A stretch of DNA of 64,000 bases from Cyanophora paradoxa CCMP329 (Eukaryota > Plantae > Glaucophyta), in NCBI GenBank assembly GCA_004431415.1, contig QPMI01000553.1:291441-355440 (forward strand), in the 5' to 3' direction. The notes under the pieces are model-generated. The model did no database searches and was not told the origin of the DNA. It was given only the letters and a program-made list of their open reading frames with translations. Shown in pieces: positions 21,156 through 60,917 of this stretch; position 1 is the first letter of the stretch, and every line of letters begins with the position of its first letter. Made by a program: the position numbers and the translations under genes.

Positions 21156-22738
21156 TGCCCACGTCGCTCACATCCTCCACCTCCCAAACCTACGGCGATT
21201 TCATTGCGGGGGGAGGCCCCACATCGCAGTCCGTACCCCTCCCCACTGTGGTTGTCACCATCAACTGGGAGGCCTTCGTGGACCCCGTCGACGAGATTCG
21301 CATTTACAGGGATGGTGCATTTAACGGCATCGCAAACAATGCGCTATCGACCTCGTACACGGACGACAGCAACTCCCTCGTGCGCGGCACGCAGTATTCC
21401 TACCAGGTGGCACCCGTCGTGGGCGGCGTCGAGTACGAAAAGTCCGACCCGATATTGGCCTGGACGGTACCGAACGCGCCCACGAACCTGATTGCGAGCG
21501 CGCCCAACGACCAGCAGCAGCCTGTGAGCCTCACCTGGACGGCGTCCATGGGAGCGACGGGGTACAAGATCTACAGGGGCGGGGCCTACCTCGCAACCTC
21601 CGCGACCAACTCTTACAGCGATGCGACCACGATCTGGGGTACAGGGTACGAGTTCCAGATCTCCGCGACGAACTCAGGGGGCGAAGGGCCAAAGGGCACG
21701 ACCGTGTACGTCACCACGGACCCGGGGGCGCCCACAGGGCTCACTGCAACTCCGACGGAGGGGGCAGCGCAGCCCGTGGTGCTCGCGTGGTCCGCGCCGG
21801 CGACGGGCGTCACCGTCTCCTACAACATCTACAGAGACGGCGTTTTCCTCGCGAGCGACACCAGCAGCCCTTACTCGGATACCACAACCGCTTACGGTGC
21901 AACTTACACCTACACCGTCAAGGGCGTCAACCAGATCGGAGAGGAGGGCCCCCCCTCGGGGAGCAGCAGCGTGGCGCCGTTCTCCGTTGCCTCCCAGTTC
22001 GGTACGGATCTGTTGCAGCATTTCGATGCCTCATCCCTATCGCTTGCGAACGGCGCCACCGTCGACAGCTGGCAGAACCTCGCGAACACCGCGGAGTCCG
22101 CAACGCAGACAATTGTTGCGAACCGCCCCACTTTTGTTGCAAACGCCATCAACGGCAAGCCGGCGCTGCGCTTCACCGCGGCTTCCAGCCAGTGGCTCGA
22201 CTTTTCGGCACACTTGTCGCGTTTCAACAACGTCGCTTACCCGAACGGGTTCCTGGTCGCACTGGTCGTCAAGGCCGTCAGTACTGCAGATCACTCAAAC
22301 TACTGGAACATCGGCGTGGTATCGAACGTATCCGGTATCATTTACGTGATGCACGACTTAAACGACGCAACTCGCGTGATCACGGGCGTTAGTCCCGATA
22401 ACATGACGTACAGTGCTTACACGACTGCATCCGCAACTACATCGACATCCTCCTACAGCGTCTACATCTGCCAGTTCACGAGCACATCACGTACATTCTG
22501 GTCTTCGCTGCAGGGTGGGGGGGCGACCGCGCTCCCAGGCGTGCTGAAGTACGGTACCCTGTTCCGGTTGCCCCTTGCACAGGCCCGCACATCCGGCTAC
22601 ATTGGGAGAAACATTCAATCTACTTGGGGTGGGTACCTCAACGCCTTTGTCGCTGAGATCATCATTGTCGGGCGCTCCGGTTCCGAAGCCGATATCAGCG
22701 GCTTGATGGGGCACCTCAAGGCCAAGTACGGCATTTAA
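21152..22738 (+). CDS. Three FN3 repeats plus a C-terminal LamG/lectin-like domain (adhesin or fibre)
   Basis: Repeated P-APT-L...V-L-W......Y-IYR-G......Y-D......Y-Y-V motif. The C-terminus (FDASSL..WQN...RPTF..NAINGKPALRF) is typical of viral LamG-like domains. Confidence 0.8.
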   Translation: MMPTSLTSSTSQTYGDFIAGGGPTSQSVPLPTVVVTINWEAFVDPVDEIRIYRDGAFNGIANNALSTSYTDDSNSLVRGTQYSYQVAPVVGGVEYEKSDPILAWTVPNAPTNLIASAPNDQQQPVSLTWTASMGATGYKIYRGGAYLATSATNSYSDATTIWGTGYEFQISATNSGGEGPKGTTVYVTTDPGAPTGLTATPTEGAAQPVVLAWSAPATGVTVSYNIYRDGVFLASDTSSPYSDTTTAYGATYTYTVKGVNQIGEEGPPSGSSSVAPFSVASQFGTDLLQHFDASSLSLANGATVDSWQNLANTAESATQTIVANRPTFVANAINGKPALRFTAASSQWLDFSAHLSRFNNVAYPNGFLVALVVKAVSTADHSNYWNIGVVSNVSGIIYVMHDLNDATRVITGVSPDNMTYSAYTTASATTSTSSYSVYICQFTSTSRTFWSSLQGGGATALPGVLKYGTLFRLPLAQARTSGYIGRNIQSTWGGYLNAFVAEIIIVGRSGSEADISGLMGHLKAKYGI

Positions 22739-23580
22739 GTCGTGTACATTAGCTCTCCAGTGAATACGGTGAAGCCGCTGCTTGTAATATCAAATCCGCC
22801 GCCGAGGTAATTACCGCCCCAGGAGTAAAGATCGATGTACTGGTCTTTTGCTATGTTACACATGAACGTAAATGCAAGGTTACGGTAATCACCGGCTTCG
22901 TTTGTGTACCCCCAGGGTTTCGCGCCATCCACGCCTTCCGATCCATTTCTCCGCAGCGTGACGGAAAGGCCCCCTGCGGCAGCACTGGTTGCCGACAGCG
23001 TAAATTTGTACACCCCGCTCACGGGCGCCGTGAAGGTACCCTCGGTCAAATTGAAGCCTCCCGTGTTGATCCACGACCACCCCCACGGTTTTATGACCCC
23101 TTTGGCCGCTGGCGTTACAAACGTAGTGCTCAGACCCACGCAGAAAGCCGGTTTCGGGTGCTTCAGGTACCCCGTAATTGTTGCGGCTCCGGCGATTGTC
23201 GTGTCACCGTTAACCCGCAGCCCGCCCACCACGTCCGCCCCTCCCCCCTGCACGTAGAGCGCCGCATTCCCCTCCCCGTCGGCAGTACCGTTAAAGGTCA
23301 GGGCGTTTGTGGTGTGACCACTCCCGTCCCAGGAGCCGTTCGTGACGGTGAGCCTCTGCGTCTTCACGCGCCCCGGCACGGCCGATCCGCCCTCCCGTGT
23401 GCGCATCTTATCGCAGCGCAGCTCGCCGACGCGGACGAGGTCGGCCTCGGAGAAGGGAATGGCCGTGGCGTTGTAGGGGGCCTCGGTGGCCTGGTTTCCG
23501 AGGGTGGTCTCCTTAATCGTGTGATCGCCCTTGTGATTCACGCTCGCAGCATAGGTGAATAGAGGGACGGCAACGGACAT
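22735..23580 (-). CDS. Fibre-like protein with a C-terminal C1q domain
   Basis: PAFCV...NTGGFNLTEGTFTAPVSGVYKF...FTVFTGEL is a C1q signature. Confidence 0.8.
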   Translation of the reverse strand: MSVAVPLFTYAASVNHKGDHTIKETTLGNQATEAPYNATAIPFSEADLVRVGELRCDKMRTREGGSAVPGRVKTQRLTVTNGSWDGSGHTTNALTFNGTADGEGNAALYVQGGGADVVGGLRVNGDTTIAGAATITGYLKHPKPAFCVGLSTTFVTPAAKGVIKPWGWSWINTGGFNLTEGTFTAPVSGVYKFTLSATSAAAGGLSVTLRRNGSEGVDGAKPWGYTNEAGDYRNLAFTFMCNIAKDQYIDLYSWGGNYLGGGFDITSSGFTVFTGELMYTT

Positions 23581-23617
23581 TTGTCGTTAATCAGAAAAAA
23601 CCTTCTACCGTGTTATA

Positions 23618-28827: not shown

Positions 28828-29356
28828 TTTATCCGCGAGAGAGAAAAATTAACTAATGCTCCGCGTCCCACGTCCACTTCAGCTTGCCGCTCACCTCGCC
28901 CGTTGTCCAGCGGCCCACGGGCACCTGCCAGAAAACGTCGGCGTAGGGTAATCGGGCCTGATAGTGATCTGCTCGTCACGCAGCCAGCGGTAGGCCTCGG
29001 AGGCGTCGCGAATCTTTGGCTCCCAGTATTCCCCACCCGTGCCGTTCGGCAGCGAGTACCCCTCCCTTGCTACCCGTACCCTGTAAAAGTGATCGCCCAT
29101 TAGCGTGTCTACCCCCTGTACTCGAATTCTACGATTAAGGCCAAGTCCTGCCATGCGCTCTCACCGAGACGGATGTGACTGAGGCTGTGCAGCAGCCCGT
29201 ATTTAATTGGACCAGAGGCGGTTACAAGATCGACTCTGTAAGTAAGGGGCGAGGGGTAGCCAGGCACGCCCGTAAAGGTACGCGTCTTGACGCCCGAGCC
29301 CTTTCGCGGGAATATGATCAGGCGCATTTAAGGGGGCCTGCGAAAATCTAGTCGGC

Positions 29357-29806
29357 CTACTTAGCGTAGGCCCAGAGGCCGAAGTTCTTGACGATGAAGG
29401 CGTTGTTCTTCTTGGTCGCGCCCGTGATGTCGGTGAAGCGCACGCGCAGCTCCTGGAATTTGTCGTACGCGACGTAATTCGGGCGCACGGCCATGGGCAC
29501 CTCGAACCAGTAAAGGATGGTGTTTTCCAGGCCGTCGTGGCCCCACGTCGGAATCACGACCTTGTTGATGCACGAGTTCACGTTCGAGATGGTCGTGACG
29601 TTCAAGTCGGGCGCGTCCATCAGCAGCACGTTTACGGTTTTCGCGGCGGTGGGGTCCGGAATCGCGGTCGTGTCCAGCTCCAGGTAGACTCCCTTGATCT
29701 GCAGCGTGTCGACGTCGGAGGGGATCTGGTTCAGCTTGAGGCGCCAGAAGCCCTCGGAATCCTGCGTTTCTCCGTTCGACTGGACGTAGAGGTTAACGCA
29801 GGACAT
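29357..29806 (-). CDS. Putative minor capsid (penton-like single jelly-roll) protein
   Basis: Beta-rich; C-terminal FQELRVRFTDITG resembles IRELTVEFRDYYG of the penton at 51454. Confidence 0.45.
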   Translation of the reverse strand: MSCVNLYVQSNGETQDSEGFWRLKLNQIPSDVDTLQIKGVYLELDTTAIPDPTAAKTVNVLLMDAPDLNVTTISNVNSCINKVVIPTWGHDGLENTILYWFEVPMAVRPNYVAYDKFQELRVRFTDITGATKKNNAFIVKNFGLWAYAK

Positions 29807-32668: not shown

Positions 32669-32691
32669 ATTTATTGGCTACAAGAAAAAAA

Positions 32692-33549
32692 TTACACGAG
32701 CTTTACAGCACCCGTCTCGAGGGCCTCTACCGTCTTCGTAATGTACAGCTGCAGCAGATCCTTAAGGTTGCTCTGCGGTAGCAATTTTACGTCTACGTGC
32801 ATCTGCCTGGCGGTTTCTCGCTTCCTGTAGCCCGTCTCCTTGCCCGTCCACTGCATGCCGAGGGCGTCCTTTCTCCGTATCGGCCGCACCGCCGTCTTCT
32901 GGTACTCCTCTCCGAACCAGTCGTCCTTGTAGAAATTCGGCAGGCCGCCCTGCCCCTCCGTCCGCATGAAATCGATGAGGAAATCCGACGCCTTCTTGCC
33001 GTCGAATTGAACGCGCGAGTAGTGCACCAGCGTGAGCAGGATGTGCGCGTGGAGCCGCCCCGACCGCGGCCCGTACTCGATGCCGATGTTCGCGTTGCCC
33101 CTCTCCACGTGCGTGTCGTACATGTCCGATTTAAAATCGAGACCCTTGGGGTTCGCCTTGTCCGCGTATACCCCCATCTTTATGCACTTTGCCAGCTGCC
33201 TGTCGTCGTAGAAAAGGGCCTCCAGCCCCCTGTGAAAGGCGTCTTGAACCTTGGAGCCTTCTCCCCTGCTCCGGGGCTTGTAGTTGGTCTGGATGGTGAT
33301 CATAAAATTCGACTCGCGCTGCGGCCTCTGCTCGACTACCCCGGACGGCGTCGTGAAGGTCTTGGTGGGCGCCGCGTCCAGCACCTTCTGGAACCACGTC
33401 TTGTCGGGTGCCAGCACCTTGTCGTTGATGTTGCCCACCACGATGTGAGTCTCTACCCGGGAGCGGCCGGAGGCGTCCATGCGGAGGTGCGGGTTCGGGG
33501 CGCGGGCTTGCCTGTTTGCTGCTACGCCCCTCGCGATGAGGTTGAGCAT
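32692..33549 (-). CDS. HUH-superfamily (Rep-like) endonuclease
   Basis: FMITIQTN, GRLHAHILL and LYITK match the order of rolling-circle motifs I, II and III. Confidence 0.75.
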   Translation of the reverse strand: MLNLIARGVAANRQARAPNPHLRMDASGRSRVETHIVVGNINDKVLAPDKTWFQKVLDAAPTKTFTTPSGVVEQRPQRESNFMITIQTNYKPRSRGEGSKVQDAFHRGLEALFYDDRQLAKCIKMGVYADKANPKGLDFKSDMYDTHVERGNANIGIEYGPRSGRLHAHILLTLVHYSRVQFDGKKASDFLIDFMRTEGQGGLPNFYKDDWFGEEYQKTAVRPIRRKDALGMQWTGKETGYRKRETARQMHVDVKLLPQSNLKDLLQLYITKTVEALETGAVKLV

Positions 33550-33781: not shown

Positions 33782-34612
33782 ATGGCAGACTCTGGCGAAA
33801 TCGATCTCCTCCTCCGAAACTTTGAGCAGATCCAGCGCTACGGCGCCATCCTTCACGACGAGGGGGACCCAGACTTCGACACTCCGGCACCGTACCCCGC
33901 CGCCGCCGCCGCCATCACCAGTTCCTACCTTGGAGCCGGAGAGCGCCCCCGCAAGCGCAACCGTCGCACCCAAGGCCCCCAAGGCGAAGCCGCTGTCCCC
34001 TGCGGAAATTGCGGCTCTACCGCCCTCGTTGGTGTTCACCTGGATGGGGATCTGGTTTGCCAAGGCTGCGGTCTGGTCCTGGATCTTTATTATCCGGACC
34101 ATCAACCCCTGGCTGTCAGCGAAATCCACAGCAACTACCTGCGGAAGTACCACGTATCTGAGCGACTTAAGCAGCACTGCCTGGAGGATTCTCCTGTACC
34201 CGAGGACGTGCTGGCAGCTATTGCGAGGCGCATGGCAGGGAAGGAGTGGAGCAAAGACAATATCCGCCAAGTTCTCCGGGCTCTGAAGCAGCAGAAGTAC
34301 ATCGAGCGCTGGGCGCAGATCAAGTGGCGCATCACGGGCGAGCGCCCGCCTCCGATGAGCGCGGAGGATATGGACCGGGTGCAGGAGATGTTCGCCCTGG
34401 TGGAGGTCCCCTTCAGCATTTTCAAGTCGCAGGGTAGGAAGAATATGCTCAACTACAACTACGTTTTCAGGCAGATTTTCGTGCTGCTAGATTTGCCCCA
34501 GCACCTCCCCTACTTTCCCTTGCTCAAGAGCAGGCAGAAACTCTCGGAGTTAGATTCGATTTGGAACAGGATCTGCGAGTACAACGACTGGCATTTCTTT
34601 CCTACTCTTTAG
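33782..34612 (+). CDS. Viral late transcription factor 3 (VLTF3)-like
   Basis: Zn ribbon CGNC..CQGCG; C-terminal RKNMLNYNYVFRQ...FPLLKSRQKL...IWNRIC...W.F.PT is typical of NCLDV VLTF3. Confidence 0.92.
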   Translation: MADSGEIDLLLRNFEQIQRYGAILHDEGDPDFDTPAPYPAAAAAITSSYLGAGERPRKRNRRTQGPQGEAAVPCGNCGSTALVGVHLDGDLVCQGCGLVLDLYYPDHQPLAVSEIHSNYLRKYHVSERLKQHCLEDSPVPEDVLAAIARRMAGKEWSKDNIRQVLRALKQQKYIERWAQIKWRITGERPPPMSAEDMDRVQEMFALVEVPFSIFKSQGRKNMLNYNYVFRQIFVLLDLPQHLPYFPLLKSRQKLSELDSIWNRICEYNDWHFFPTL

Positions 34613-35362: not shown

Positions 35363-36432
35363 TCAGGCGAGGCCGCGGTGCTTTCTAAAATTATCTATCA
35401 TGCCGAGGAGCGTCTTGTCCACCGTGCCGTCGTCCGGACCCACGAGATTTTCCCCGTTGACGGTTTCGCCCTCCCAGTACTCCTTGGATCCGATTCGGAA
35501 CGGGGGCGGCTCCTCGGCCTTGTAGACGTAAAGGACGTCCAGAGGGTTCGTAGAGTTGTTGGAAGAATCGATGATAAGGCAGTGGTTATCCTGCGTGTAT
35601 TTATCGAGCAGGTAGTAGAAGGCGCGCTGGGATATGATGTCGCCCCACTCCTTTGCGAGGGCCTCGCGCTGCATCGCCTGCGAGCACTTGAAAATGACAG
35701 CCAGATCAGTATTGGAGCGCAGGACGGGATTGATGCCCTTGGCATACTGCGTCGTGATAAGGGTCATGATTTTGTAGTGGCGCCCCGCCACGAACAGCTC
35801 GTTGAGGCCTCGTCGTACCGCAGCCGCGCGTCGGAAATCACGTCGTCGAGCAGCACGAAAAATCGCGGGTCGACGGGATCTTCCTTTCCGGCCAGCACGT
35901 CTTCGGACTTGTTGTGCTGCATGATCGCCTGCTGTCTCCTGAATAAATGGAAGAGCACGCCCGGGTTGTACTTGGGCCAGATGAAGCGCTGGGGTATGTA
36001 CTGCTTCCAGTACCCGTTCAGGCGATCGGTCTGGCTGATTACGATACCCCCCGGGAAGGTGCCCGAGAGGTTGAACATGAGATCGCGAAGGAAGAAGGAC
36101 TTGCCCGTGCGCCGCTTGCCGACACAGACGACGGTGGCGTCGGACTTCACGGTGTTCACGTCGAACCATTTAAGTTCGGGCAGGCAGGCCATGCGCTCGA
36201 TGCCGCCCGTCTTCGAGTTGTCGAGGAAGGCGTTGACCTGCTCGGGCGTGAGCTGCATGCCGTCCTCCGTCATACCCATCGCGCAGCTGGCGCCGGCGGC
36301 GGGGGCGGTGCCCGAGCCCGAGCCGGTGGCCTGGCCGGCGGGGGCGGGGGCCGCGGGCGCTGCGCCTGCGGGCTGGGCGGCCTGGGGCTTGGCCGCCTTC
36401 GGCTTCTTCGGCTTCTTGGGGTCCTTGGCCAT
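35363..36432 (-). CDS. A32-like genome packaging ATPase; frameshift ~35808
   Basis: Walker A GKRRTGKS and Walker B FVLLDD, then ELFVAGRHYKI...TQY...LRSNTD in the adjacent frame. Confidence 0.92.
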
Positions 36433-40321: not shown

Positions 40322-41695
40322 ATGGCTTCCGCGCTCATCTCCACCCCCTCGACCGCCCTGCACCACTCGCTGCGCAGCTCCGACGCGTCGGTGCACGTGC
40401 ACGAGACCTTCGACACGGCGATGCCGTTCGTGGACGAGGTGCTCGAGGTGAGCCCCGTGCAGTCGGGCGTCAGCTTCGGCCAGACCGTCGACATCGTCAT
40501 CCCGCACTCGGCGCCGATGTTCAACGACGCCTGGCTCAGGGTGACGCTGCCGGCGCTGACGAACGCCGACCACTTCTACATCCCGAAGGCCGGCTACGTG
40601 CTGCTCAAGAAGGTGAAGATCTTCGTGGGCACGCAGCTGATCCACGAGTACGACGGCCACCACGACGCCATCTACGGCGAGTTCGAGGACGACAAGTCCG
40701 TCACCCAGCACGTCGACATGGTGAACAACCTCTGGGCGCACCAGCCGCTGCGCCGCCGGGGCAAGGCCCCGAACACGCTGTACGTGCCGATCCGCATCGC
40801 GACGGGCTTCGGTCGAAAGTTCGCCGTGCCCCTCCACAAGATCCGCGGGACGGGCAACGAGATGAAGCTGCAGATCACCTACGCCTCGCAGAAGGAGGTG
40901 ACGGCCTCCTTCGTGGACGGCGGCCTGCACACGAACACCGGCCTGACGAGCAGCGTCAGCCTGGACACCAAGCTCATCCTGCGCTACGTGCACATCGACT
41001 CGCGCGAGCTGGCGCTGCACCCGAACTCGTTCACGTGGGCAGGCAAGTACGTGCAGCACTACAACGTGCAGTTCGAATCGGGCAAGGCCATCCGCCTGCC
41101 CTTCACCGGAATCTGCTACGAGCTGATCGTGGTGGTGCGCGACAAGCCGCACACCGACAACGGCGAGCACTTCTGGCGCTTCCGCCCCCTGGACAAGATC
41201 GAGCTGAAGTGCGACAACATCAAGGTGGTCGACAGCTCGAACCACGACGCGCACTTCTTGCGCACGGCCATCGCGCACAAGGAGCACACGCACGCCCCCG
41301 CCCGCAAGCACCTCGAGCTGCTGCGGGGCGTGACCTCGATGGACGGGACGGCAGCGGCCGACGTGGCCGACGCGCTGCACTCGCACCCGTGGTCGGGCAA
41401 CGACACGGCCCCCACGACCCTTGCGACCCACGACGCCCACAGCAGCGACATCCAGCCCCGCAACGTGGGCCAGTTCGGCACGGAGTTCATCTACTCGCTC
41501 CCCTTCGGCACCGACGTGGCCGACAACACCAAGATGTTCGGCGGCCTCGACATGGGCGCCTTCAAGACCATCGAGCTCACGCTCTGGACGCTCAAGACCT
41601 ACGCGGCGGACGCCAAGCCCGTGGCCGACATCTACTGCCGCTACTACAACGAGATCACCTTCACCAACGGCGGCGCCTACCGCCGCTTCCATTAG
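40322..41695 (+). CDS. Double jelly-roll major capsid protein (NCLDV-like)
   Basis: SFGQTVDIVIP....DAWLRVTLP, LLKKVKIFVG.QLI, LYVPI, IYSLPFG and YNEITFTNG resemble NCLDV MCP motifs; very strong codon bias. Confidence 0.85.
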   Translation: MASALISTPSTALHHSLRSSDASVHVHETFDTAMPFVDEVLEVSPVQSGVSFGQTVDIVIPHSAPMFNDAWLRVTLPALTNADHFYIPKAGYVLLKKVKIFVGTQLIHEYDGHHDAIYGEFEDDKSVTQHVDMVNNLWAHQPLRRRGKAPNTLYVPIRIATGFGRKFAVPLHKIRGTGNEMKLQITYASQKEVTASFVDGGLHTNTGLTSSVSLDTKLILRYVHIDSRELALHPNSFTWAGKYVQHYNVQFESGKAIRLPFTGICYELIVVVRDKPHTDNGEHFWRFRPLDKIELKCDNIKVVDSSNHDAHFLRTAIAHKEHTHAPARKHLELLRGVTSMDGTAAADVADALHSHPWSGNDTAPTTLATHDAHSSDIQPRNVGQFGTEFIYSLPFGTDVADNTKMFGGLDMGAFKTIELTLWTLKTYAADAKPVADIYCRYYNEITFTNGGAYRRFH

Positions 41696-47926: not shown

Positions 47927-47953
47927 CGGCATTGAATACAAGAGTACAGAGCC

Positions 47954-48358: not shown

Positions 48359-48370
48359 GGTTCGCTCGCT

Positions 48371-48805: not shown

Positions 48806-48831
48806 CTTTAGCTAGCGCTTCGAAAATCTAT

Positions 48832-49662: not shown

Positions 49663-49812
49663 TCAGTGGTGGAGGTGGCGGAAGGTCTCGGCGTGGGCCT
49701 CCGTCGCCGCCACCACCTCCTCCGCCGCGTCGATCTCCGCCCGCGAGGCCTCCAGCGTCGCCCGCCGCGCGTAGGACTGCGGGACGGCCACGCGCCGGTA
49801 GGGCTGGGCGAG
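49663..49812 (-). pseudogene. 3' part of a GC-rich gene interrupted by the PLV
   Basis: Removing 49813-63068 restores the frame ...GLAKTLA|QPYRRVAVPQ...FRHLHH*. Confidence 0.85.
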
Positions 49813-51168
49813 ACACATATTGAAAAACGAATTTAAATCCCTCGTTCATCTCGATCGCTTCGCGATCTCGATTCACTCTGGATTTAAATTCGTTTTTCAA
49901 TATGTGTTAATTTAATACTAAAATACATATTTTTCGATTAATTTCTTAAACTTTTTATGCAAACTTTGTATAAAATAATGCAAATTTTGTATTAAAAATG
50001 AAAATGCGTTTACCAAAATGCATATTTTCGATTAAACTTCGATAGATTCAATTGATCTTATATCGATTGATTATGTACTTTGTTGTTTACATACAAATCT
50101 GCGATAGATTAACATTAAACTGCTTAAAGATCGATATAATTGCGATTAAATTGCATAAATTCGCATAAACTCGATATATCTCTCATGTATTGAAGTAGAC
50201 CACCGCCCATTCTGTATCGAAAAACGCAAAAAGTGTCACAGAGTTGCATTGTGTCCAATTGAACAATCGATGAGATTGCTGATGTACATTTTTGCACCGA
50301 AAAAGTGTCACAGAGTTGCATTATCTCCCATTAAACAATCGATTAGATTGCGGGATTTTCTATTGGAATATATCGGAACTGCATTATGTCCAATTAAACA
50401 ATCGATGAGATTGCGGATTTATATTTTAGATCGAAAAAGTGTCACAGAGTTGCATGGTCTCCAATTGAACAATCGATTAGATTGCATATGTTCTATAAAA
50501 CAGAATAATTGAATTCAAGTGTGACAGGTAGTATTCAAATGATATTCAGTAATAGATATATTTGTTTTTGAGAAAGTCAGTAAGAGGGGTAGAATGTCTG
50601 TGACGCCTGTGACGGCTGTGACGCCTGTTTTCAGAAGTCTGTCATTTTTGAAAATTTTAAAAAGTTTGAAAGTAGGTGTCACAGGCGTCACAGGCGTCAC
50701 ACTCAATTAAATTAGGTGTCACAGCGAAATTGCAGACCATTTCCAGTAAGACAACTTCGCATTTTCAAAAAGGTTGATTAATGGATAGTGTTTTGGAGGT
50801 GTCAGAGGTGTCACAAGACGGATTGCAGTAAGACAAGAATATATTCTCGAAAATCTCAGTAAGAGAAAGAGATTCCATTTTTAATTGGGTGTGACGCCTG
50901 TGACGGCTGTGACGGCTGTTTTCAGAAGTCTGTCATTTTTGAAAATTTTAAAAAGTTTGAAAGTAGGCGTCACAGGCGTCACAGGCGTCACAGTCAATTA
51001 AATAGGTGTCACACCCGATTATCTGACCATTTTCAGTAAGACCATCTGAAATTCTGAATTTCTCAGTGTCAACTAACTCGGAAATCGCAATACTCTATGT
51101 TTCTCCGATTTCTCCAACCCTGAAAACACACCTGTTATTCTCTCATCTATCTCATGAGATACTCTCGT
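49813..51168 (+). repeat. Left terminal inverted repeat (1356 bp)
   Basis: Reverse complement of 61708-63062; the only difference noticed is one homopolymer indel (~50565). Confidence 0.95.
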
Positions 51169-51215
51169 TTCGCCAAAAATTGACAAACGATTTCCCATCA
51201 TGCTGTAAAGGAAAC

Positions 51216-51470
51216 ATGCCGATTAACCAGCCGTATTACAATTACTATGGGCATTACTTCTTGATTGTCAAGAAACTCACAGAGCATTATGAGATCTTCC
51301 AAGAGATGGGATTGCGAATTACAAGGAGATCAACCCTTTGTAGATTCTTGAAAAAGAATGGTGCTAAATGGGATAAGACAATTCGCCAATGGTATACAGA
51401 AGATCCCAAGAGTCCCCTTCTTGATATTTTCGAAACATTGAATCTGGATCAGTTTAATCATTTCCAATAG
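51216..51470 (+). CDS. Small protein with a DUF5710-like motif
   Basis: LKKNGAKWDKTIRQWY. Confidence 0.5.
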   Translation: MPINQPYYNYYGHYFLIVKKLTEHYEIFQEMGLRITRRSTLCRFLKKNGAKWDKTIRQWYTEDPKSPLLDIFETLNLDQFNHFQ

Positions 51471-52386
51471 CCAAGAACTCTAACTGGAATGAGTTGTCAA
51501 TTCCATTCATATCAACAAGATCACCATAATAATCTCGAAACTCAACTGTTAACTCTCTAATCACAAGGTTTCGATCGGTTATTTTTATGTATTCACTGTG
51601 CTCTCCACTGTGATAAACATACTGTCCAATATCTTTACTTAATTGCAATCTGAGAATCGCCCCTTGATTCTGTGGTTGAGATTGTGGGACAATATTGTGG
51701 TTTGTAGCAAATGGGGAGAGTTCTTTAATGTGCATGTATAAATACTGTTCTGCATTCATGTCTGTCATCTTGGATGCTTCTAACTTGTAGTTTAAGCGAG
51801 ATGCCTCGAATTCATATCCTGTGAATGTAATTCCCCATTGTGGATGGTTTGGGGTGATTGGTACTCCTGCAAAATAGAGGAAATTCTCGGGGGCATATAA
51901 AGACCTTGCAGACTCTGGGAAATCGTAGGTTTGCTCAATTGAAGCGACCCACTCCACAGAACTAACCCCAAGAAGTTTACCCAATCTCTGTGTAGATGCT
52001 ACCAATTCGAATTGAACATTACTGTAAAACTCTAACTTGTAGGAGGTCGGATTATAGTAGACTTTGAATGCATATGTGAGATTGTTGCTCCCAGTAAAGG
52101 TGAAATTCAGACCATAATTATATGGACTGGTGACCCCGAAATGCCCTTGATTAATATAACCACTTGGGAGAAGGAAGACCTGTTTGGTTTCAGAGATGCC
52201 TTGGTAGAAGAATCTGACAAGAAGGTGGTCTGTTCCAATGGAATTATAGATGCTGTTGGGGATCTCTGCATACAAAACTCGACATTCTCTTGGTTTGGTC
52301 ACTGGGGTTGTGAGTGAAACTTTGTAGGAGTTTTCTATTTGTCCATCTGATCGGTCTCTGCTATCTATATTGACCAGCCGAATCAT
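51454..52386 (-). CDS. Minor capsid (penton) protein
   Basis: N-terminal IDSRDR, AEIPNS.YN, YLYMHIKEL and LTVEFRDYYG.LVDMNG.D.SF.LE are typical of PLV/NCLDV minor capsid proteins. Confidence 0.85.
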   Translation of the reverse strand: MIRLVNIDSRDRSDGQIENSYKVSLTTPVTKPRECRVLYAEIPNSIYNSIGTDHLLVRFFYQGISETKQVFLLPSGYINQGHFGVTSPYNYGLNFTFTGSNNLTYAFKVYYNPTSYKLEFYSNVQFELVASTQRLGKLLGVSSVEWVASIEQTYDFPESARSLYAPENFLYFAGVPITPNHPQWGITFTGYEFEASRLNYKLEASKMTDMNAEQYLYMHIKELSPFATNHNIVPQSQPQNQGAILRLQLSKDIGQYVYHSGEHSEYIKITDRNLVIRELTVEFRDYYGDLVDMNGIDNSFQLEFLAIGND

Positions 52387-52414
52387 TTTAATATATGTTT
52401 ATAGATAAAAGAAG

Positions 52415-53424
52415 ATGCCTGTGGATTACATCGAAGTGAGCTCTTTCAATACAATTTCGGGAGATGGACCTACTTCGAGTTTTATTGCTCGCCTCCCAGC
52501 ACCTATGAATTTGTGAGAGCAGTAAGACTGGTTTCAGCAGAATTCTATAACAGCATTCCCATGGTGAGTGGTGAAACCAAACCAGGAGATGTGACAATAG
52601 ATAATGCAATCTACCTTTATTGGTCTGAATATTATTCTGGTGCAGGAAGCACTGGTATTCCAACTGATCGACCTGCTGCCGATTATGAGCAATGGAAACA
52701 CATTGTGATAAGTCGCAGCACACCCATTCAAAACCACCAACAACTGGTGAATGTAATTAACTCCAAACTTGCATTGAGAGAGCCACCAGTAGCAATTCGC
52801 TGTAAATGGGATGATACACTGAAACGAGTTATATTCCATTCAACCATACCGTTTTACCTGGCTTTCTCAACCGCAATTAACCCAAACCAGGCGCAGATTC
52901 AGAGGTTTTTGAGTTCTGCTCGACTGCTTGGTCTTGATCCTGGGAGATATGGTAACACCCCAATCCAATCACAAGTTTATAATACTCTGACTGATGGTAT
53001 CTTTACTGGGTCGATGGTGCATGGTATCATATCTTCATTTGAACCTGAAAAGACCAGGGATAGTGTTCTGTTTGTGAGAGTAAAGGAGTTGGGTGATCTG
53101 GTTCAATGTGGTGATGGTCTCCTCACTGGATATTTCCACAAAATCGTTGTTCCAGATAAAGATTATGGTGAGCATGTCGTTTATAATTCGACAGAAGCCC
53201 ATCCGATTTATAAATACTATAACAAGAATCTGGGACTTTCCACATTTTCGGTTGATATTGTGAATGCAGTTAATGAACCAATTGATTTCGAGGGTCAACC
53301 TGTCCACCTCACCTTCGAAATTCGATATGGTGATGAACCTGCTGGTGATCCTGTGTATGAATATTTCAAGAGGAGGATGGCGGAAACCCATCCATCTTAT
53401 CCTGTAATTGCGAGTTTTGCGTAA
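52415..53424 (+). CDS. Second penton-like protein; frameshift ~52508
   Basis: VRLVSAEF.NS, LFVRVKEL and FSVDIVN....IDFEG..VHLTFEI parallel the first penton; the ATG at 52415 is in the adjacent frame. Confidence 0.7.
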
Positions 53425-53478
53425 AATCAAGGATCATTGGTGAATTTTTTATGTTGCAGTATAATAAAAGAGATAATC

Positions 53479-54849
53479 ATGGATATTACTTCGACCCTCC
53501 AACGTCTTTCTCTGAAAGAAGCTCTAACAACCCCGGAAGAAGCCAAGGCGTTCTTCCTGGACAACTCTCTCATGCTTGGTCTTGAATCCAAGTCGAAGCC
53601 AGTTCTTGTTGTTGTGAACCCAAGCAACACTTTCGAGAATAATGCTGGAAATCGCATTTCTTTCAAGCTCCCTCGCTACAATTTCTGTGGAAAACTCGAA
53701 CTTGCGTTTGACCTTCCAGCTGTCACTTTTGCTGGTGATACCGACCTTGTTCGCAATGGATACGTTCGCCCAGTTGGTGCTCTTGTCTCTCGACTTGAAA
53801 TCACCTATGGATCTTACACTTTCCATGTGCCTTCTGATTTCCTTGCTCATTTCCCTCTTATCTATTACAGTGAGGATCAACTCGCCAAGAAGAAGCGTTC
53901 AATGGGTATGGTTCATGGTATCCCTGCCCATGGAACCAACCGACTTGGTGGGTCATTTTTCACTGAAATCCCAGTCCCATGGCTAAACCATTACCTACCT
54001 CTTGGTGCTCTCTCAGGAGAAATGGTGGTAACTGTCTGGTTCAAGGATGCTGGAAAGGGTTATGTTGAGACTTCTTATGGTGGTCGTGCTCTTCCAGTTG
54101 TTGGTGGAACAGCTGCTGATAAGACAGAGGATGATGGACTTGGTGCTACTGCTAATGCTACTCTTGCCCATGTTGGTCAACAGATCACCACTTTCACCAT
54201 CTCTGGAACAACCCCCGAAATTAAAGTCACTTCTCCTCGTCTTTACATGCATGCTATTAATGTTTCTGATGAACTGTTTGCTACTGTCATTGAGAAGGTG
54301 AAGACCACTGGTATGGCTATTCCTGCTCTGGATATTGGTTTTGTTGACAGTGTCAATTTTGCTGCAAAAGGCAATGCTCAACCAAATCGTATTAACCTGT
54401 CACAGATCTCTGGTCTTGTCTATGGTCTTCTTGTTTCAGTTCGTGATGCCGCAGGTATTGATGGTTTCAATGGTTCCCACAGTGTCCTAAAAACGCATGC
54501 TAACTCAAAAGACATTACTTTCACTGTTGAAATTAATGGTCAACGTCTCTATGCTACTGAGCCCATCCCTCTCCTCAAAGGTGCCGAATTAATTGCGGAT
54601 GCCTTCAAGTGCTCGAATATGGACAAGGTTGCAGACAAATATGTCCTCAGTGGTCTACCATTCTGTGTTGATGGAGAGAAAGCGATTCGCAACATTGCCC
54701 AGTCTGGCTATGTTGATCTCACGAACTCCTCCTCCTCTTTCCTCACTCTATACATGCCTTCTGACCAGACAATCACAGTTAATGTTCGTGCTCTCATGCA
54801 CAGTTTCATTATTGTTGACAAAGATGGGCTCCGACGAATTAATCTGTAA
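53479..54849 (+). CDS. Double jelly-roll major capsid protein of the PLV
   Basis: ~456 aa; ISFKLPR....LEL.FDLP and EIPVPW; lies between the pentons and the ATPase; biased codons. Confidence 0.8.
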   Translation: MDITSTLQRLSLKEALTTPEEAKAFFLDNSLMLGLESKSKPVLVVVNPSNTFENNAGNRISFKLPRYNFCGKLELAFDLPAVTFAGDTDLVRNGYVRPVGALVSRLEITYGSYTFHVPSDFLAHFPLIYYSEDQLAKKKRSMGMVHGIPAHGTNRLGGSFFTEIPVPWLNHYLPLGALSGEMVVTVWFKDAGKGYVETSYGGRALPVVGGTAADKTEDDGLGATANATLAHVGQQITTFTISGTTPEIKVTSPRLYMHAINVSDELFATVIEKVKTTGMAIPALDIGFVDSVNFAAKGNAQPNRINLSQISGLVYGLLVSVRDAAGIDGFNGSHSVLKTHANSKDITFTVEINGQRLYATEPIPLLKGAELIADAFKCSNMDKVADKYVLSGLPFCVDGEKAIRNIAQSGYVDLTNSSSSFLTLYMPSDQTITVNVRALMHSFIIVDKDGLRRINL

Positions 54850-54911
54850 AACCATGATCAGTAACGTTTCGTTATTTTTATCTATCTTTAATAAGAAAGA
54901 TCTACAAAGCC

Positions 54912-55445
54912 ATGTCTGACGTTCCCGAATTTAATGCTGCTGAGATGATTAAACCCCCTTTTCGCGTATTAGCAATCGGAAAAAGCGCGACGGGCAAGTC
55001 AGAAGCCGTAAAATATTGGCTAAAACAACTTCACGATGCGAAAAAGTTAGATGTTGTTCTTGTTATAAGTGGGACATCATTCAATCATTTTTGGGATGAT
55101 GTCGCAACATTACAGCTCGGTAAATGGGATGCGCCTTACATCGCTAAACTTCTCGATGAAAGACAAGAGAAAATTGAGAAAGGAGAACCCGTTAATCAAT
55201 TATGTGTTGTTCTCGATGATCTTATAGACAATGAGATTGTAGACCTTACCCGTGATAAAATTATTGGATCTCTGTATTCGCGCGGCCGCCACTCGGCGAT
55301 TACAATTTTCTGCATAACTCAGAAACTGCGTAAGGTTTCTTCAACCATTCGCGTCAATTCGGATTATGCAATGTTCCTCAGTGCCGCCAATCGCAAAGAA
55401 CTGGAAGCCATTGAAGAAGAATACAATATCATGCGGGATAAAGGT
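54912..55445 (+). CDS. A32-like packaging ATPase, C-terminally truncated by the GC-rich insert
   Basis: GKSATGKS, VVLDDL and SRGRHSAI...TQ...IRVNSDY. Confidence 0.9.
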
Positions 55446-57074
55446 TGCGGAGCTCGAGCGCCCGCGCGACGGCCTCGCGCTGCTCCTGGTTGAGCGGGGC
55501 GAGGAGGGGGAGCATCTCCCGGACCAGGCGCTCCCCCCGCGTCGGCTCGACGGGCTCGGTCCGCGTGGCCGTGCCGTCCCCGACGGCGCGGCGGATCTCG
55601 GTCCGGGCCGCCTCGGACGCGGCGGCGTTGTAGAGGGCGTAGAGCGCCCCGCGCATGAGGCCCGCGCCCTCCAGCGCCCCCGGACGAGGAGCGCGAGGGC
55701 CATCCAGGCCGCCAAGGCGGTCGCGAGGAGGGGGCCCGGAGGGTCAGCGAGACCCGCGACGAGGCAGTGCAAGAGGGCGGCCGCGAGCACGGGAAGGTGC
55801 ATCGCTCGGGCTCGGACGCGACCGCGCGGGGCGCCGCTTCTTTTGAATGGTCGCGCGGGGGCGGGCGCCCGCCGCCTTTGGGAAGAGGTGGATGATGATC
55901 ATGGATCGACGCGCCCGGAGCGATGCGTAAATAGGTGCGCAAAGACGACGACGGGACGCGAGGTCGCATGACGCGCACCAAGGCCCCCCGCGACGGGGGC
56001 GCCTCGACGGCCGGCAAGACGGTCGCCAGGTGGAAGAAGAAAACGCGCAGCAGCAAGCGCCTGACAAAGGAGCAGCGGAAGAGCATGCCGGCGAGCGGCG
56101 GGATCAAAAAGCCGAAACGGTGGAGGCCCGAGGCGCCGCTTCTTCTCGCCCCGGCGGTGCGCGACCTCTTCCTCGGTCGGGCGCTCGACCGCGAGGAGCG
56201 CCGCGGCGGCCTCGGCGGTCGCCAACCCGAGGGACTTTGCCGGCAGGTCGGAGACGATGCGGTGCCGCGGGTTGGTCCTCTGGAGCTTGGTCTCCGCGCG
56301 CGTGATATACGACTCGAGGGCCGCGTACGCCCCCGGATCCCCGATTTTGAGAAACTTTGCCGCGTCTCTCAGTGCCCCTAAAATGGGCTGGACGAGGACG
56401 CGCGGCGCCGGCGTCTGTATCGTAGTTGATTTTGTAGAAAATGGATTTTGGACCCAACCTCCCGCCCGCCCGTGACGTGATCGAGGCCCGCGCGACGAGC
56501 CGCCTCCCGAACCATCGCCCGCACCGCCGCGCGTCGCCGGCACGCGGCCTGGAGGGCGACCGCCGCGACGCAGCGCACGAGGGTCGCCTCGTCGCAAGAG
56601 GAGATGCGGGGCAGGGTCGCATGGGTCCGAACCGCGACGATCGCTGGGCGGGGGTCGAGGCCGCGGTCGTCGCCGACCTCTTGCGCGCGACGGCGCCCGA
56701 GGAGCGGGGGCCCGCCCGGATCATCTTCTTCGGCGACGCGGGCTTCCCGCGGTACGCGTCCTCGTACCCCGACCGCATCGAGCCGTGGCTCCTCCAGGCG
56801 GCGGTGGACTTTGCGGCCGACCCGCGCCGCCGCCCCCTCTCCATCGTCTTCCACACCTTGAGCCTCCGGAAGGCGTCCTGGTTCGACGAGCTGCGCGTCG
56901 GGCTAGAGTTCAATGGCGTGCAGATCGTGCGACACAACTGCCTGTGATTTTTTTTCACTGTAAATAAAAGTCACTCTTCCGTCTTCTTTTTCTTTGCCTC
57001 TGTAAACAGCATGCGCCGAGCCTTGCCGCGATCGATGTCCGCAAAGGGGTTCACGGAGCCGAACACGACGTTGG
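55446..57074. other. GC-rich foreign insert inside the PLV
   Basis: Abrupt GC shift; AAAGGT at 55440-55445 and 57075-57080. Confidence 0.85.
55968..56381 (+). CDS. ORF beginning with a histone H3 N-terminal-tail-like sequence (no histone fold)
   Basis: MTRTK...STAGK...RKSMPASGGIKKPKRWRP versus H3 MARTK..STGGK..RKSAPATGGVKKPHRYRP. Confidence 0.65.
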   Translation: MTRTKAPRDGGASTAGKTVARWKKKTRSSKRLTKEQRKSMPASGGIKKPKRWRPEAPLLLAPAVRDLFLGRALDREERRGGLGGRQPEGLCRQVGDDAVPRVGPLELGLRARDIRLEGRVRPRIPDFEKLCRVSQCP

Positions 57075-57080
57075 AAAGGT

Positions 57081-57845
57081 AACACAAGCAATACTTCCGC
57101 TCTTGTAGTCAAGAGTGGAGGAGCCTACATTGGTGATGGAGCAATTGTGGTGGGGACTGTCACAGCAAATCAATTTAATGTGAATGGAACAAGTTCATTT
57201 ACAGGATTGATGACCTTCAATGGTGGTCTTTCAGGAAGTATTCAGTATGGAACTCTCACACTGTCAACAAGATTAACAACTCCTGAGAGTGACACAATTG
57301 CAGACACCAACTTTATTTACAAACGAAATGGAAGCGCAATTGTGACACTACAAAATATCCAAACAACACCATCAAACAGAGAGGCGATCGTATTTTCATC
57401 AGGAAGCTATCTAAAACGAAATGGTTGCCCCCGTTTTATGGCTTCTGTTATGGCTCCGAATGCAGCAGAAACAACAGTTTCAAAAGCAACCGGAACGAAT
57501 ATTCTATTTCCAGGAGTTCTTATCAACCATGGAAACAACTTCAATGGTTCAACATTAGGGAATTTTACCGCCCCTGTTGCAGGAAATTATTACTTCTGTT
57601 TCCAAGTGATTATCTCAACCACTACTGCATCTGAGATTGTTCTGAATCTTCGGAAAAATGGAGCAACATCAGAATATGAGGCAAGAGCAACTTTTGCTTC
57701 CTCAATGTCACGATTACCTATATCATATGAATGCATCATCAACCTTGCTGCAAATGATTGGATACGAATTTACAATAATTCCACTGCTGCAATCGTATAC
57801 ACCAATCGATCGCACTTTGGAGGAATGCTGATTAGCGCCACATAA
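57081..57845 (+). pseudogene. C1q-domain fibre, N-terminus missing
   Basis: SALVVKSGGAYIGDG begins directly after the insert; FTAPVAGNYYF C1q motif. Confidence 0.8.
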
Positions 57846-57867
57846 TATTGTTACTTTAAAGTAAAGA

Positions 57868-58888
57868 ATGTCTACACAGATTGCTGTTCCTGTTTTCTGT
57901 TATGCAGCCCAAAATTGCATCAACTCAACCACACAGTAACAGATGCAACCCTGGGTTTATTTGCACAGAATCCACAGGAGCGGATTCATTTTCTCAAAAT
58001 TCTGTGATCAGATGCAAAGAGATACGATGTGATCGCAATAATGGAAAGGTGAGAGCCACTGGTTTAATTGTGTCAAATAAGAACCAAGTCCAATCGGGAT
58101 CGATTGTATCAGATACAGCAATTTATGATGATGTGGGAGGGTTCATCACACCGAAAATTATTACTTTTGACAACACCATGAATAACTCTGCTCTTGTAGT
58201 AAGAAGTGGAGGAGCCTACATTGGAGATGGGGCAAGGGTTGATGGAACTCTTACAGCAAGTCAACTTGCTGTGACAGGGACAACCACTTTTACAGGAATG
58301 GTTACAGCAAATGGTGGAGTCTCAGTAGCAACCAATTCTCAACCCACCATTACTGCAACAACAAGATTAGTAACTCCTGAAATTGATACAGGAGGAAATG
58401 TTGATCTTGTGTTGAAGCGAAACAGCAATACAGTAGCAACACTTGAAGCCAATTCGTTAACAATTAATACAGGGTGTTATTTAAAGAACAGCTTCCAACC
58501 AAGGTTCTGCTTCCGATTGGGTTATAATCACACTGCAACTTCTTCGACCGCTCTCATTAATTGGGCAACCAATCTTGTTAATGTAACAGGATCCTTCACT
58601 GGATCATCAGGAAGATTTACAGCTCCTGTTGCTGGACATTATCGATTCTCAGTTTTTACCAACTCAACAACACAAAACCCAATTCAGCTTTTCTTCAAAT
58701 TGAATGATGCCGATCCTGGGGGCATTTCTCTTTCTGTTTCCAGCACAGGCACATTAATAGTCAGACCTCTTCAAATGTCCTGCATTCTCAATCTTGCAGC
58801 CAACGAATATGTAACTATTTGGACAACAAACCAGGGGACATATTCCTCTGCAACAACATTTTGTGGAGAGTTGATAAGTATTACATAA
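57868..58888 (+). CDS. C1q-domain fibre protein; two frameshifts in the first ~100 nt
   Basis: GRFTAPVAGHYRF...TFCGEL; the ATG at 57868 gives MSTQIAVPVFCYAA. Confidence 0.8.
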
Positions 58889-58909
58889 TTTTCTTTTGAT
58901 AGAGTAAGA

Positions 58910-59173
58910 ATGTCGAATATCTATCAAGTGGTTCTATCAGATACTGAAAAGTTGGGGATGGAATTTTGTGCTGCTTCTGTTCAGGATTGGATCGATAATG
59001 CTGCCCACAACAGGGCAAGAATTGCAATTGATGAGATTGTTCAGAAAGAAGTTCAATCTTGCATTGCAGTAGGAGTTCAAATACCAACCACAAAGGAAGC
59101 GATTGTGTTACAGGCATTCCAAAGGGGAACTGTTAAAAAGGCGATTGAATATAACAATTTCACAGAAGAGTAG
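58910..59173 (+). CDS. Small protein, possibly a fibre-associated chaperone
   Basis: QDWIDNAAHNRARIAIDEIV; directly follows the C1q fibres. Confidence 0.6.
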   Translation: MSNIYQVVLSDTEKLGMEFCAASVQDWIDNAAHNRARIAIDEIVQKEVQSCIAVGVQIPTTKEAIVLQAFQRGTVKKAIEYNNFTEE

Positions 59174-59211
59174 TGAACATTATTTTTCTTTCCTTCTTAG
59201 TAAAAGAAGCA

Positions 59212-60066
59212 ATGGGTGAATATAATCGAGTTCAACTTCCAATATATTCCCTTGGATCCCCTGCAATGCACTTTCGCCAGCATGAAGTTAATGATGAGGT
59301 TCGTGGTTTAGAATCCACAGAGAGACCCAATTCCAATGGTAACTCCTTTGATAAAAATTCGATTATTCGAGTTAAAGAGCTGAGAGCTGATAAGAATTCA
59401 GGTGTGGTTAAAACAACTCGACTTCTTGTCACCAATGCTAACTTTTTCCAGCCTACAAATGGAGGTCCTGATGCTTACAGTGTTGATCTGAAAGCCCTGG
59501 ATTTCGATAAGAATTCTGCTGCTGCTACAATTCGTTCAGGTGGAGCATTTATTGGTGGTGGCTGTCGAGTTTCAGGTCAACTTTCTTCATCAATTTCGTA
59601 TAATGATGTCCCAGATACTCTTGAACAGAATGTGGAGAACCCACAACGAATTCGGTTCTATACACCAGTTGCACAGCAACCTTTTCTGCATTTCTATGTT
59701 GCATCATCTGTCACTCTTGAAAATTCAGAATTGGTTTCCATTACAGGAACTGATCGAGTGAGAAGGAATATTCCTCTTCCCACAGCAATGCTCTCAATGT
59801 GCAGAGCAAATAATAACCAACAAGGTCACAATTACCTATTCTTTGTTCAAGCATCCAACCATTTTGGTCGGGGATATTGTGTTTATAACAATCTGACATT
59901 TACTTATGATTTGTTTGTCACTGAGGTTGGAGTTTACAATACTATGATTATGGGACTGAGAACAGATATAGCAGCTGTTTCAGCACTTCGTGGGGTAAAC
60001 ATTGCAGATATCTTCACAACAGGGTTTTACCAGGAACCAGATGTGATTGATAACCCAACCCCATAA
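59212..60066 (+). CDS. Fibre-family paralog (shared N-terminal domain)
   Basis: KELRADKNSGVVKTTRLLVTN...SGGAFIGGG. Confidence 0.75.
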   Translation: MGEYNRVQLPIYSLGSPAMHFRQHEVNDEVRGLESTERPNSNGNSFDKNSIIRVKELRADKNSGVVKTTRLLVTNANFFQPTNGGPDAYSVDLKALDFDKNSAAATIRSGGAFIGGGCRVSGQLSSSISYNDVPDTLEQNVENPQRIRFYTPVAQQPFLHFYVASSVTLENSELVSITGTDRVRRNIPLPTAMLSMCRANNNQQGHNYLFFVQASNHFGRGYCVYNNLTFTYDLFVTEVGVYNTMIMGLRTDIAAVSALRGVNIADIFTTGFYQEPDVIDNPTP

Positions 60067-60089
60067 ATTATATATCACTTTAATGTAAA

Positions 60090-60917
60090 ATGGCTGCCCC
60101 AGTAGAGCGAATTATTACACCCCAGCTATCATTAGCAGCACCTGCAAATCACGTTTTGCAGCATGCTACTTTTGATGATGTAGAAGGTCTCCAATCCACA
60201 GAAGTACAACCTACCATGAATACCTTTGGTTCCACCCATAAACTGAGATTGCAGGAACTCAGATGTGATAAAAATAATGGTATAGTTAAGACAACGAAAC
60301 TCCTTGTCACCAATGCAAACTTTTCTGCCCATTATGGAGACCCAGACAGTTATGGTGATCCTCTTTCTACTTATTCTTTTGAATCTCGGTCGGGAGCTAT
60401 TAACTGCAAAACGGGGGGAGCATATATTGGTGATGGTCTTCGGATTGGTGGAGCTGTGGGTGCGCCTCTTTTCGTAAATGATCAACCCAATCCCATTGAT
60501 CCCAACACCAGAATTCGCACCTATGTCCCCAGTATGAATGCACCATATATTATAAAGATCTTCCCAATTGTTGTGAATGAACAGACATCAGTAGTTGATT
60601 CTCTTGTTGAGATTGGTGACCACTACAAGGTGGTCGTGGATATTCCACCAGATGTTTATGCTGTCTGTCAAGTAGAGGGTGGAACCCCAAATATTGCAGT
60701 TGTAATCACTCCATATGACAATTTCGGGATTGCTTATCATGGAGTGAATTTCGGTCTTGAAGATTACCAGTTTTTGGTGAGAGCCACCAGATTTGGTATC
60801 TACAAATGCATTCTCTATGCTGAGAGAACCGATGCTATTGCAAGACAGAATACATATGCAGAATATTACGGCACAAATCGATACTTCCCCATTTTCGGGC
60901 AGGATACTGCTCCATAG
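60090..60917 (+). CDS. Fibre-family paralog (shared N-terminal domain)
   Basis: QELRCDKNNGIVKTTKLLVTN...TGGAYIGDG. Confidence 0.75.
   Translation: MAAPVERIITPQLSLAAPANHVLQHATFDDVEGLQSTEVQPTMNTFGSTHKLRLQELRCDKNNGIVKTTKLLVTNANFSAHYGDPDSYGDPLSTYSFESRSGAINCKTGGAYIGDGLRIGGAVGAPLFVNDQPNPIDPNTRIRTYVPSMNAPYIIKIFPIVVNEQTSVVDSLVEIGDHYKVVVDIPPDVYAVCQVEGGTPNIAVVITPYDNFGIAYHGVNFGLEDYQFLVRATRFGIYKCILYAERTDAIARQNTYAEYYGTNRYFPIFGQDTAP

Follow-up and report, generated by a model that had tools for sequence, protein, structure and literature searches.

How do two apparently distinct viruses, one of them inserted in the other, come to carry the same N-terminal part on their surface proteins? The question is raised by a 64,000-nucleotide stretch of contig QPMI01000553.1 (positions 291,441 to 355,440; hereafter the window), in which host-like, intron-rich DNA extends to about 15 kb and is followed by a GC-rich virus that begins at about 16-19 kb, continues past the right end of the window and is split by an AT-rich element. 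We refer to the former as the outer virus, which appears mriyavirus-like, and to the latter as the inner element, which is of the polinton-like virus (PLV) type. Fibre-like proteins of both carry a common N-terminal module (Table 1). With moderate confidence, we favour the view that this rare module stands before interchangeable heads, probably forms the end by which a fibre docks on the virion, and was probably exchanged horizontally, long ago, between the ancestral viruses of both lineages.

A preliminary description of this locus had aligned by eye the N-terminus of the outer fibre-like protein with those of the inner proteins encoded from 57868, 59212 and 60090, and the resemblance bore up: tblastn of the outer protein against the window finds all three genes (57989, E 5e-11; 59230, E 5e-11; 60111, E 7e-8) as well as the short upstream frames 57880 and 57918; in N-terminal shuffle tests the outer protein scores z 12.8 against the 57965 frame, z 23.2 against the 59212 protein and z 15.6 against the 60090 protein (0/1000 shuffles each); and z remains at 15-19 (0/2000 shuffles) when the comparison is limited to the first ~75 residues, which exclude the low-complexity GGA motif. 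Identity between the outer module and the inner modules is 34-39%. Profiles built from inner copies only, from outer copies only or from environmental copies only each recover the other side. With the profile of the five environmental homologues, each of the four full copies in the window (E 1e-43 to 2e-20) is recovered among 1432 six-frame stretches, as is the remnant at 57081 (E 8e-5); this check is not fully independent, since these homologues were themselves found by window-based profiles. The 57081 remnant, which had been included in the eye alignment, belongs to the set by way of its neighbour (z 17.3 against the 57868 gene), whereas its direct match to the outer protein is weak (z 2.0, 44/1000 shuffles) and involves only the final ~25 module residues. 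Taken together, these comparisons indicate that the homology of the module between outer and inner proteins is real. The strong difference in codon composition noted earlier also holds: the GC content of third codon positions (GC3) is 0.82 in the outer module vs. 0.27-0.33 in the four inner genes, and the DNA of outer and inner modules shows no similarity beyond 9-14-nt words at E 8.

A profile survey of the domain shows that it is not ubiquitous. The profile of the four window copies matches 9 proteins at E<=0.001 among 1,835,955,588 representatives: five outer-type Cyanophora paradoxa models and four environmental proteins. A wider profile, with 7994 candidates scored, adds the environmental protein P0026 and two more Cyanophora models, which brings the environmental homologues to five in all. 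P0011 and P0026 are full-length orthologues of the inner 60090 protein (64% and 65% identity, respectively), and P0013 and P0014 combine the module with a C1q-like head and have an insertion in common with the outer type that is missing in the inner copies. The first ~75 residues of the module have no match in Pfam, PHROG, NCBIfam or PDB; a sub-threshold Bactofilin match concerns only the glycine-rich end of the module in 57868. An N-terminal “VPLFTY”-type word may resemble the adenovirus fibre tail motif; PF06536, the avian adenovirus fibre N-terminal domain, matched none of the five window proteins at E<=0.01. An Atlas search of the module gave a best value of 0.88 without a common family, and serves as a lead only. 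Pattern scans with the module found no confirmed relative in IMG/VR or JGI metagenomes, a weak absence because near-exact words are needed, and scans with either major capsid protein (MCP) or with the inner ATPase found no relatives. P0013 has no match among GenBank phages, Rfam gave 0 matches, and the module was not found in 4/4 IMG/VR fragments related to the outer virus, although these are only 11-13 kb long.

Behind the module, the proteins diverge. In the outer-type copies the module has 87-94% identity with that of the window copy, yet the heads are unrelated or are C1q domains only 22-35% alike (one pair, 84%); the head of P0001 matches phrog_34132, a phage family of unknown function, at E 6e-44, and that of P0002 is unrelated to all other heads. 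Of the four inner heads, two are C1q domains, and the other two (59212 and 60090) are non-C1q heads related to each other (z 8.9). Further fibre variants among the inner copies are seen in the contig joints 58264->57186 and 57209->58610, each in 2/4 runs. The proposal of swappable heads is thereby borne out, and the alignments indicate that heads are replaced within each lineage behind a constant module. Shared receptors and piggy-back entry, which had been suggested along with it, fared differently: identity between outer and inner C1q heads is just 24-25%, which does not exceed that of other pairs, so that nothing points to a shared receptor, and piggy-back entry is unsupported.

A constant N-terminus with a variable C-terminal head of binding type is an organization expected of a fibre or spike. 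Such an arrangement is the usual anatomy of phage and adenovirus fibres, and C1q domains are trimeric. Because of this resemblance to phage and adenovirus fibres, we call the module the virion-docking end: by analogy, it is likely the part of the surface fibre that docks on the capsid, and we infer that the module protein forms trimers. Our proposed mechanism is as follows: the module, with a short GGA-type shaft, would fold as a trimer and dock on the capsid; recombination just behind it would swap receptor-binding heads (C1q, phage-related head, lectin-like beta-sandwich); and selection would preserve the docking end and diversify the tip. In an AlphaFold2 (AF2) model of the 60090 protein, the head has a predicted local distance difference test score (pLDDT) of 59-80 by block. 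The best VIA match of this head model has Z 5.8 (root-mean-square deviation (rmsd) 3.1, 87 aligned) and concerns an H-type lectin and a cyanophage tailspike domain; this match is weak and not significant alone, and the VIA matches as a whole (Z 5-5.8) give only a hint. BFVD matches of the same model, mostly with rmsd >10, were not used.

The nesting of a PLV in the outer virus, another claim of the preliminary description, is confirmed. The inner element is bounded by terminal inverted repeats (TIRs) and a 6-bp target-site duplication, and contigs of 3/4 runs contain the empty-site joint 49806->63063, in which the six letters fit both sides. As these contigs join 49806 directly to 63063, the nesting is a true insertion, into a site that also occurs empty. 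In our proposal, a docking module that is self-contained could pass from one virus to another when both replicate in one host nucleus or reside in one genome; the nesting seen today shows that the lineages have a host in common and was not the occasion of the exchange.

The two carriers are otherwise far apart. The outer packaging ATPase is 41-52% identical to those of IMG/VR relatives and only 24% identical to the inner ATPase (over 188 aa, E 9e-11), for which reason we treat the two viruses as separate lineages; their MCPs are barely detectable as relatives (E 0.02), and the outer penton candidate has no similarity to the two inner candidates (z -0.6 and 0.9). A tblastx comparison of inner with outer DNA gave only short pieces tied together by a single sum statistic (E 4e-5); the C1q region is among these pieces, and no additional common gene was accepted. 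The module is more alike between the viruses than the core genes and is rare elsewhere, which favours horizontal movement after the lineages had split. The inner paralogues are 34-44% identical to each other, that is, as distant from one another as from the outer copy, and the exchange is therefore probably old. Inheritance of the module from a common ancestor of small viruses resembling nucleocytoplasmic large DNA viruses (NCLDVs), under strong constraint and with loss or divergence beyond detection elsewhere, would accord with the NCLDV-type resemblance of both MCPs and with the described continuum from PLVs to mriyaviruses (10.64898/2026.06.19.733378). It would also require the module to have stayed more similar than ATPase and MCP, which are usually the best conserved of all genes, and to have escaped notice in a 1.84-billion library that should contain many proteins of mriyaviruses and PLVs, as well as in all four of the short IMG/VR fragments, and we consider it improbable.

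The module tree (11 rows, unrooted; P0001 and P0018, near-identical to the outer copy of the window, were left out) bears on the question of who gave the module to whom. The outer copies group with P0013/P0014 (support 94/92), in agreement with the insertion these share, and the approximately unbiased test (p-AU 0.015) rejects a tree that unites the outer copies with 57868. The copies in the window are therefore not sisters, and a third donor is possible. The ancient exchange envisaged earlier thus stands as an old exchange (module above core genes, no DNA similarity, codon use matched to the carrier) and falls as a sister relationship between the two window copies; the tree and alignments favour horizontal exchange between the lineages, in either direction, and not between these two copies. 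The same grouping is what one would expect if both lineages had separately taken the module from a third virus or from a wider pool of small freshwater viruses, for example the carriers of P0013/P0014. Only five environmental homologues were found, two of which are plain orthologues of the inner 60090 protein, and both carriers occur in one host species, an unlikely outcome for a rare domain acquired independently; we hold this origin to be unlikely, if less so than common descent.

Several observations weigh against exchange of a docking module between the lineages. The unrooted tree does not reject a monophyletic group of the inner copies and their orthologues (p-AU 0.10); the NCLDV-like character of both MCPs is compatible with common descent; and P0013, P0014 and P0015 are known without genomic context. 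As for docking, an AF2 model of the module from a four-sequence alignment has a mean pLDDT of 36 and is unusable, residues 1-151 of the 60090 model have pLDDT <50, and no relationship is detectable between the outer and the inner penton candidates, so that a common docking partner is not evident. Finally, a search with the 59212 module found 0/68 candidates, though many inner-type contigs occur in the runs of this organism. Since that search is empty despite plentiful genes of this kind, endogenous copies are under-sampled, and the apparent rarity of the module reflects a lower bound on its range.

Table 1. Coordinates of the features discussed (positions of the window; strand as + or -, or. 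where none applies).
Feature	Position	Strand	Remarks
Outer fibre-like gene, 281 aa	22735..23580	-	module + C1q head; Pfam C1q E 3.1e-6, residues 145-217
Module of outer fibre-like protein	23200..23580	-	residues ~1-127; GC3 0.82
Outer penton candidate	29357..29806	-	candidate by resemblance
Outer HUH endonuclease candidate	32692..33549	-	HAH and YxxK motifs by eye
Outer VLTF3	33782..34612	+	Pox_VLTF3 E 1.2e-24; as in mriyaviruses
Outer packaging ATPase	35363..36300	-	two frames in this copy; Walker motifs; 41-52% identity to ATPases of IMG/VR fragments L001-L004
Outer MCP, NCLDV-type	40322..41695	+	Capsid_N E 7e-8; as in mriyaviruses
Target-site duplication, left copy, 6 bp	49807..49812	+	
Nested PLV-type element	49813..63062	.	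13.25 kb; ~40% GC outside insert
Left TIR	49813..51168	.	terminal 95-nt imperfect palindrome
Inner penton candidate 1	51454..52386	-	motif resemblance to PLV pentons
Inner penton candidate 2	52405..53424	+	resembles 51454 weakly (z 2.8); 5' end unclear here
Inner MCP	53479..54849	+	Atlas features 0.97-0.98 to NCLDV-type capsid clusters, 12-30% of members with Capsid_N
Inner A32-like packaging ATPase	54912..55443	+	Pox_A32 E 1.1e-8; 3' end cut in this copy
GC-rich insert, 1.6 kb	55444..57080	.	GC 0.56-0.8 per 100 nt except one AT-rich spacer near 56950
Inner fibre-like gene 1 (57081 remnant)	57081..57845	+	last ~25 module residues, shaft, C1q head (E 1.4e-12)
Inner fibre-like gene 2	57868..58888	+	module, shaft, C1q head
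Inner gene 3, 284 aa	59212..60066	+	module + non-C1q head; 31% identity with outer module by blastp (E 1e-14)
Inner gene 4, 275 aa	60090..60917	+	module + beta-sandwich head
Right TIR	61708..63062	.	TIR ~1.36 kb
Target-site duplication, right copy, 6 bp	63063..63068	+	

The inner element has the features of a PLV in the broad sense: a double jelly-roll MCP (Atlas 0.98, with a recognition value below the tool's strong threshold), an A32-like ATPase, TIRs and a target-site duplication. As the look-alikes of its MCP are NCLDV-type clusters, we do not place it in Aquintoviricetes. The proteins from 51454 and 52405, penton candidates by motif likeness, have no match in Pfam or PHROG. Part of this copy has been overwritten by a GC-rich insert that replaces everything from the end of the ATPase gene up to and including the beginning of the first fibre gene; what is left of the latter has a 220-nt stretch of 71% DNA identity with the 57868 gene. 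The insert is spanned by one exact contig (55414-57107) in run X1; contigs of two runs continue differently past 55443. It has no blastn match elsewhere in the window, and the first ~55 residues of an open reading frame (ORF) at 55968, which has no Pfam match, may resemble a histone H3 tail; the insert could stem from a different mriyavirus-like genome or from the host. No gene for a replicase (polymerase, helicase) or an integrase was found in this copy. Because the insert has displaced a stretch of the element, and other copies differ after 55443, autonomy is not to be judged from this copy.

An inner copy that lacks polymerase, helicase and integrase genes and sits inside another virus invites the thought that the 13-kb element is a replication-less satellite of the 40-kb mriyavirus-like virus (not of a giant virus), with the module kept compatible as a cross-compatible capsid socket so that the fibres of one could decorate the particles of the other. 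An upstream motif of the outer virus bears on this reading. The heptamer WWTTTCT occurs strand-specifically 19-42 nt before the start codon of 15/24 outer genes (window 19000-49800; shuffle mean 0.22) and before none on the opposite strand; its refined form WTTCTR stands before 12/24 outer genes and before 3/7 and 4/7 homologous genes in the related IMG/VR fragments L001 and L003, respectively. A motif of this type is likely a lineage-wide promoter element. WWTTTCT also precedes 3/9 inner genes (shuffle P 0.0075, best of four patterns), whereas the refined WTTCTR precedes only 1/9 of them (P 0.59) vs. 12/24 in the outer virus. As the 3/9 count comes from a pattern picked after both sets had been seen, and the refined form gives 1/9, we do not take a common promoter motif as a sign of helper dependence. 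In addition, replication genes may have been lost with the stretch that the GC-rich insert displaced, the modules are only 34-39% and the heads 24-25% alike, the site is commonly found empty, and endogenous viruses are often nested in other genomes as well (as described in 10.64898/2026.07.28.741278). We regard the satellite relationship as very unlikely, more so than the other alternatives. If it were true, the locus would contain a satellite-helper pair with plug-in host-range tips, either virus wearing the fibres of the other, in many copies in a cultured glaucophyte.

Comparison with known systems shows where the exchange of a docking module would add to them. In the part of the work on Halocafeteria seosinensis considered here, endogenous PLVs and virophages are nested and exchange genes in one genome (10.64898/2026.07.28.741278); as in that case, distinct viral lineages with common genes (there including a LamG-domain cluster) are nested in one protist genome, but the Halocafeteria partners are PLVs and virophages that share mostly replication, integration and accessory genes, whereas here the partner is mriyavirus-like and the common part an unnamed fibre N-terminal module. 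PLV fibre proteins with variable C-terminal binding domains, presumed trimeric, are described by Bulzu et al. (2025, PMC12220804), whose set includes Cyanophora paradoxa PLVs, one with an H-lectin head. The fibres in that account are mostly long and contain S74 chaperone, LamG, collagen and avian-adenovirus fibre domains, whereas the present module matches none of those Pfam families; C1q does not occur in the main text of that paper. Nor does Cyanophora occur in the main text of PMC10120064. Phage-fibre-like proteins are reported in both PgV and its PLV, with Ltf of Gezel-14T as the example (10.1101/2022.07.28.501842). The fibre-head fold common to zamilon Zav_19 and Marseilleviridae NMV_189 (10.1101/2023.01.23.525297) is likewise a case of unrelated icosahedral viruses with a similar part of a surface protein; there, as reported, the head fold is common without sequence similarity, whereas here the N-terminus is shared in sequence and the heads differ.

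The outer virus resembles the Mriyaviricetes as described by Yutin et al. (2024, PMC11253617) in its NCLDV-type MCP, ATPase, VLTF3 and putative RuvC-like and HUH-like genes and in having no polymerase in the window; unlike the viruses of that description, it is endogenous and multi-copy in a likely glaucophyte, and VLTF2, helicase and PDDEXK genes were not seen in the window. The inner element resembles the VC40 reduced NCLDV-like PLVs outlined in 10.64898/2026.06.19.733378, which are small, with an NCLDV-like MCP and no detectable replication genes, and differs from that group in that Tlr6F and methyltransferase genes were not seen in the inner copy, which has the replaced stretch. In the literature searched, with subscription papers and preprint supplements outside the search, neither the module nor sharing of fibres between mriyaviruses and PLVs is described. 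Gene exchange and nesting among co-resident endogenous viruses are already published; the new part is a module that belongs to no family of Pfam, PHROG or NCBIfam, nor to one in the PDB sequence set, and that links the surface proteins of two such different viruses, one mriyavirus-like and one of PLV type. The word “fiber” does not occur in the main text of PMC11253617, and the module is a candidate for mriyavirus cell attachment, which that class description does not address there, with a natural panel of swapped heads. Many variant copies of both viruses are present in public runs of one organism, likely Cyanophora paradoxa, so that docking, head swapping and any helper relation are testable.

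The assignment of the outer virus as mriyavirus-like is suggested by its gene set (MCP, ATPase, VLTF3 and the putative RuvC-like and HUH-like genes), that is, by gene content and without a tree including named members. Its RuvC-like match (Ydc2-catalyt, E 2e-4) is weak and under the curated cut-off; neither of the two frames of the packaging ATPase matches Pfam; the HUH candidate, whose HAH and YxxK motifs we take to be of HUH type, has no match in Pfam, PHROG, NCBIfam or PDB; and the protein from 29357..29806 is a penton candidate. DUF5767 and DUF5679 proteins are also encoded. Members of Mriyaviricetes are expected to have genomes of 35-45 kb that encode helicase, VLTF2 and PDDEXK but neither DNA nor RNA polymerase; within the window, the outer virus, which runs off the right end, has no DNA or RNA polymerase, helicase, VLTF2 or PDDEXK gene. 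The four IMG/VR fragments L001-L004 (11-13 kb) each have 7-8 outer-virus genes in common with it, including VLTF3, ATPase and several unnamed genes, and look like further mriyavirus-type elements. The near-identical relatives of the outer fibre-like protein are gene models of Cyanophora paradoxa, a glaucophyte alga that is therefore the likely host.

Some further observations concern the inner element. The 95-nt imperfect palindromes (49813-49907 and 62968-63062) could form a hairpin at the element ends, and a contig joint 49914->62935 in 2/4 runs may be a miniature derivative or a TIR artefact. The 57868 gene has two frame breaks within its first 100 nt, and other contigs have one extra base at 57908 and at 57948; the breaks may be copy decay or assembly error. 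An outer-type motif lies 24 nt before an ATG near the right end of the GC-rich insert. An AdoMet decarboxylase-like gene (61402-61803, E 6e-11) runs into the right TIR. CpG observed/expected is 0.40-0.55 in the inner element (52000-54000 and 58000-62000) vs. ~1.1 in the outer virus and host-like DNA.

In the outer virus, an FN3-repeat protein and two related-looking ORFs adjoin the fibre gene (20715-22738 and 19272-20788), in a region that differs among contig copies. The gene at 27900-29350 shows many one-base differences from high-depth contigs, which could be long-read assembly errors or copy decay. TGGGACT-type repeats in inverted blocks, with related inverted repeats, lie inside or at the edge of the outer virus (16246-18902 and 45522-46916) and are possible origin or end structures of its genome.

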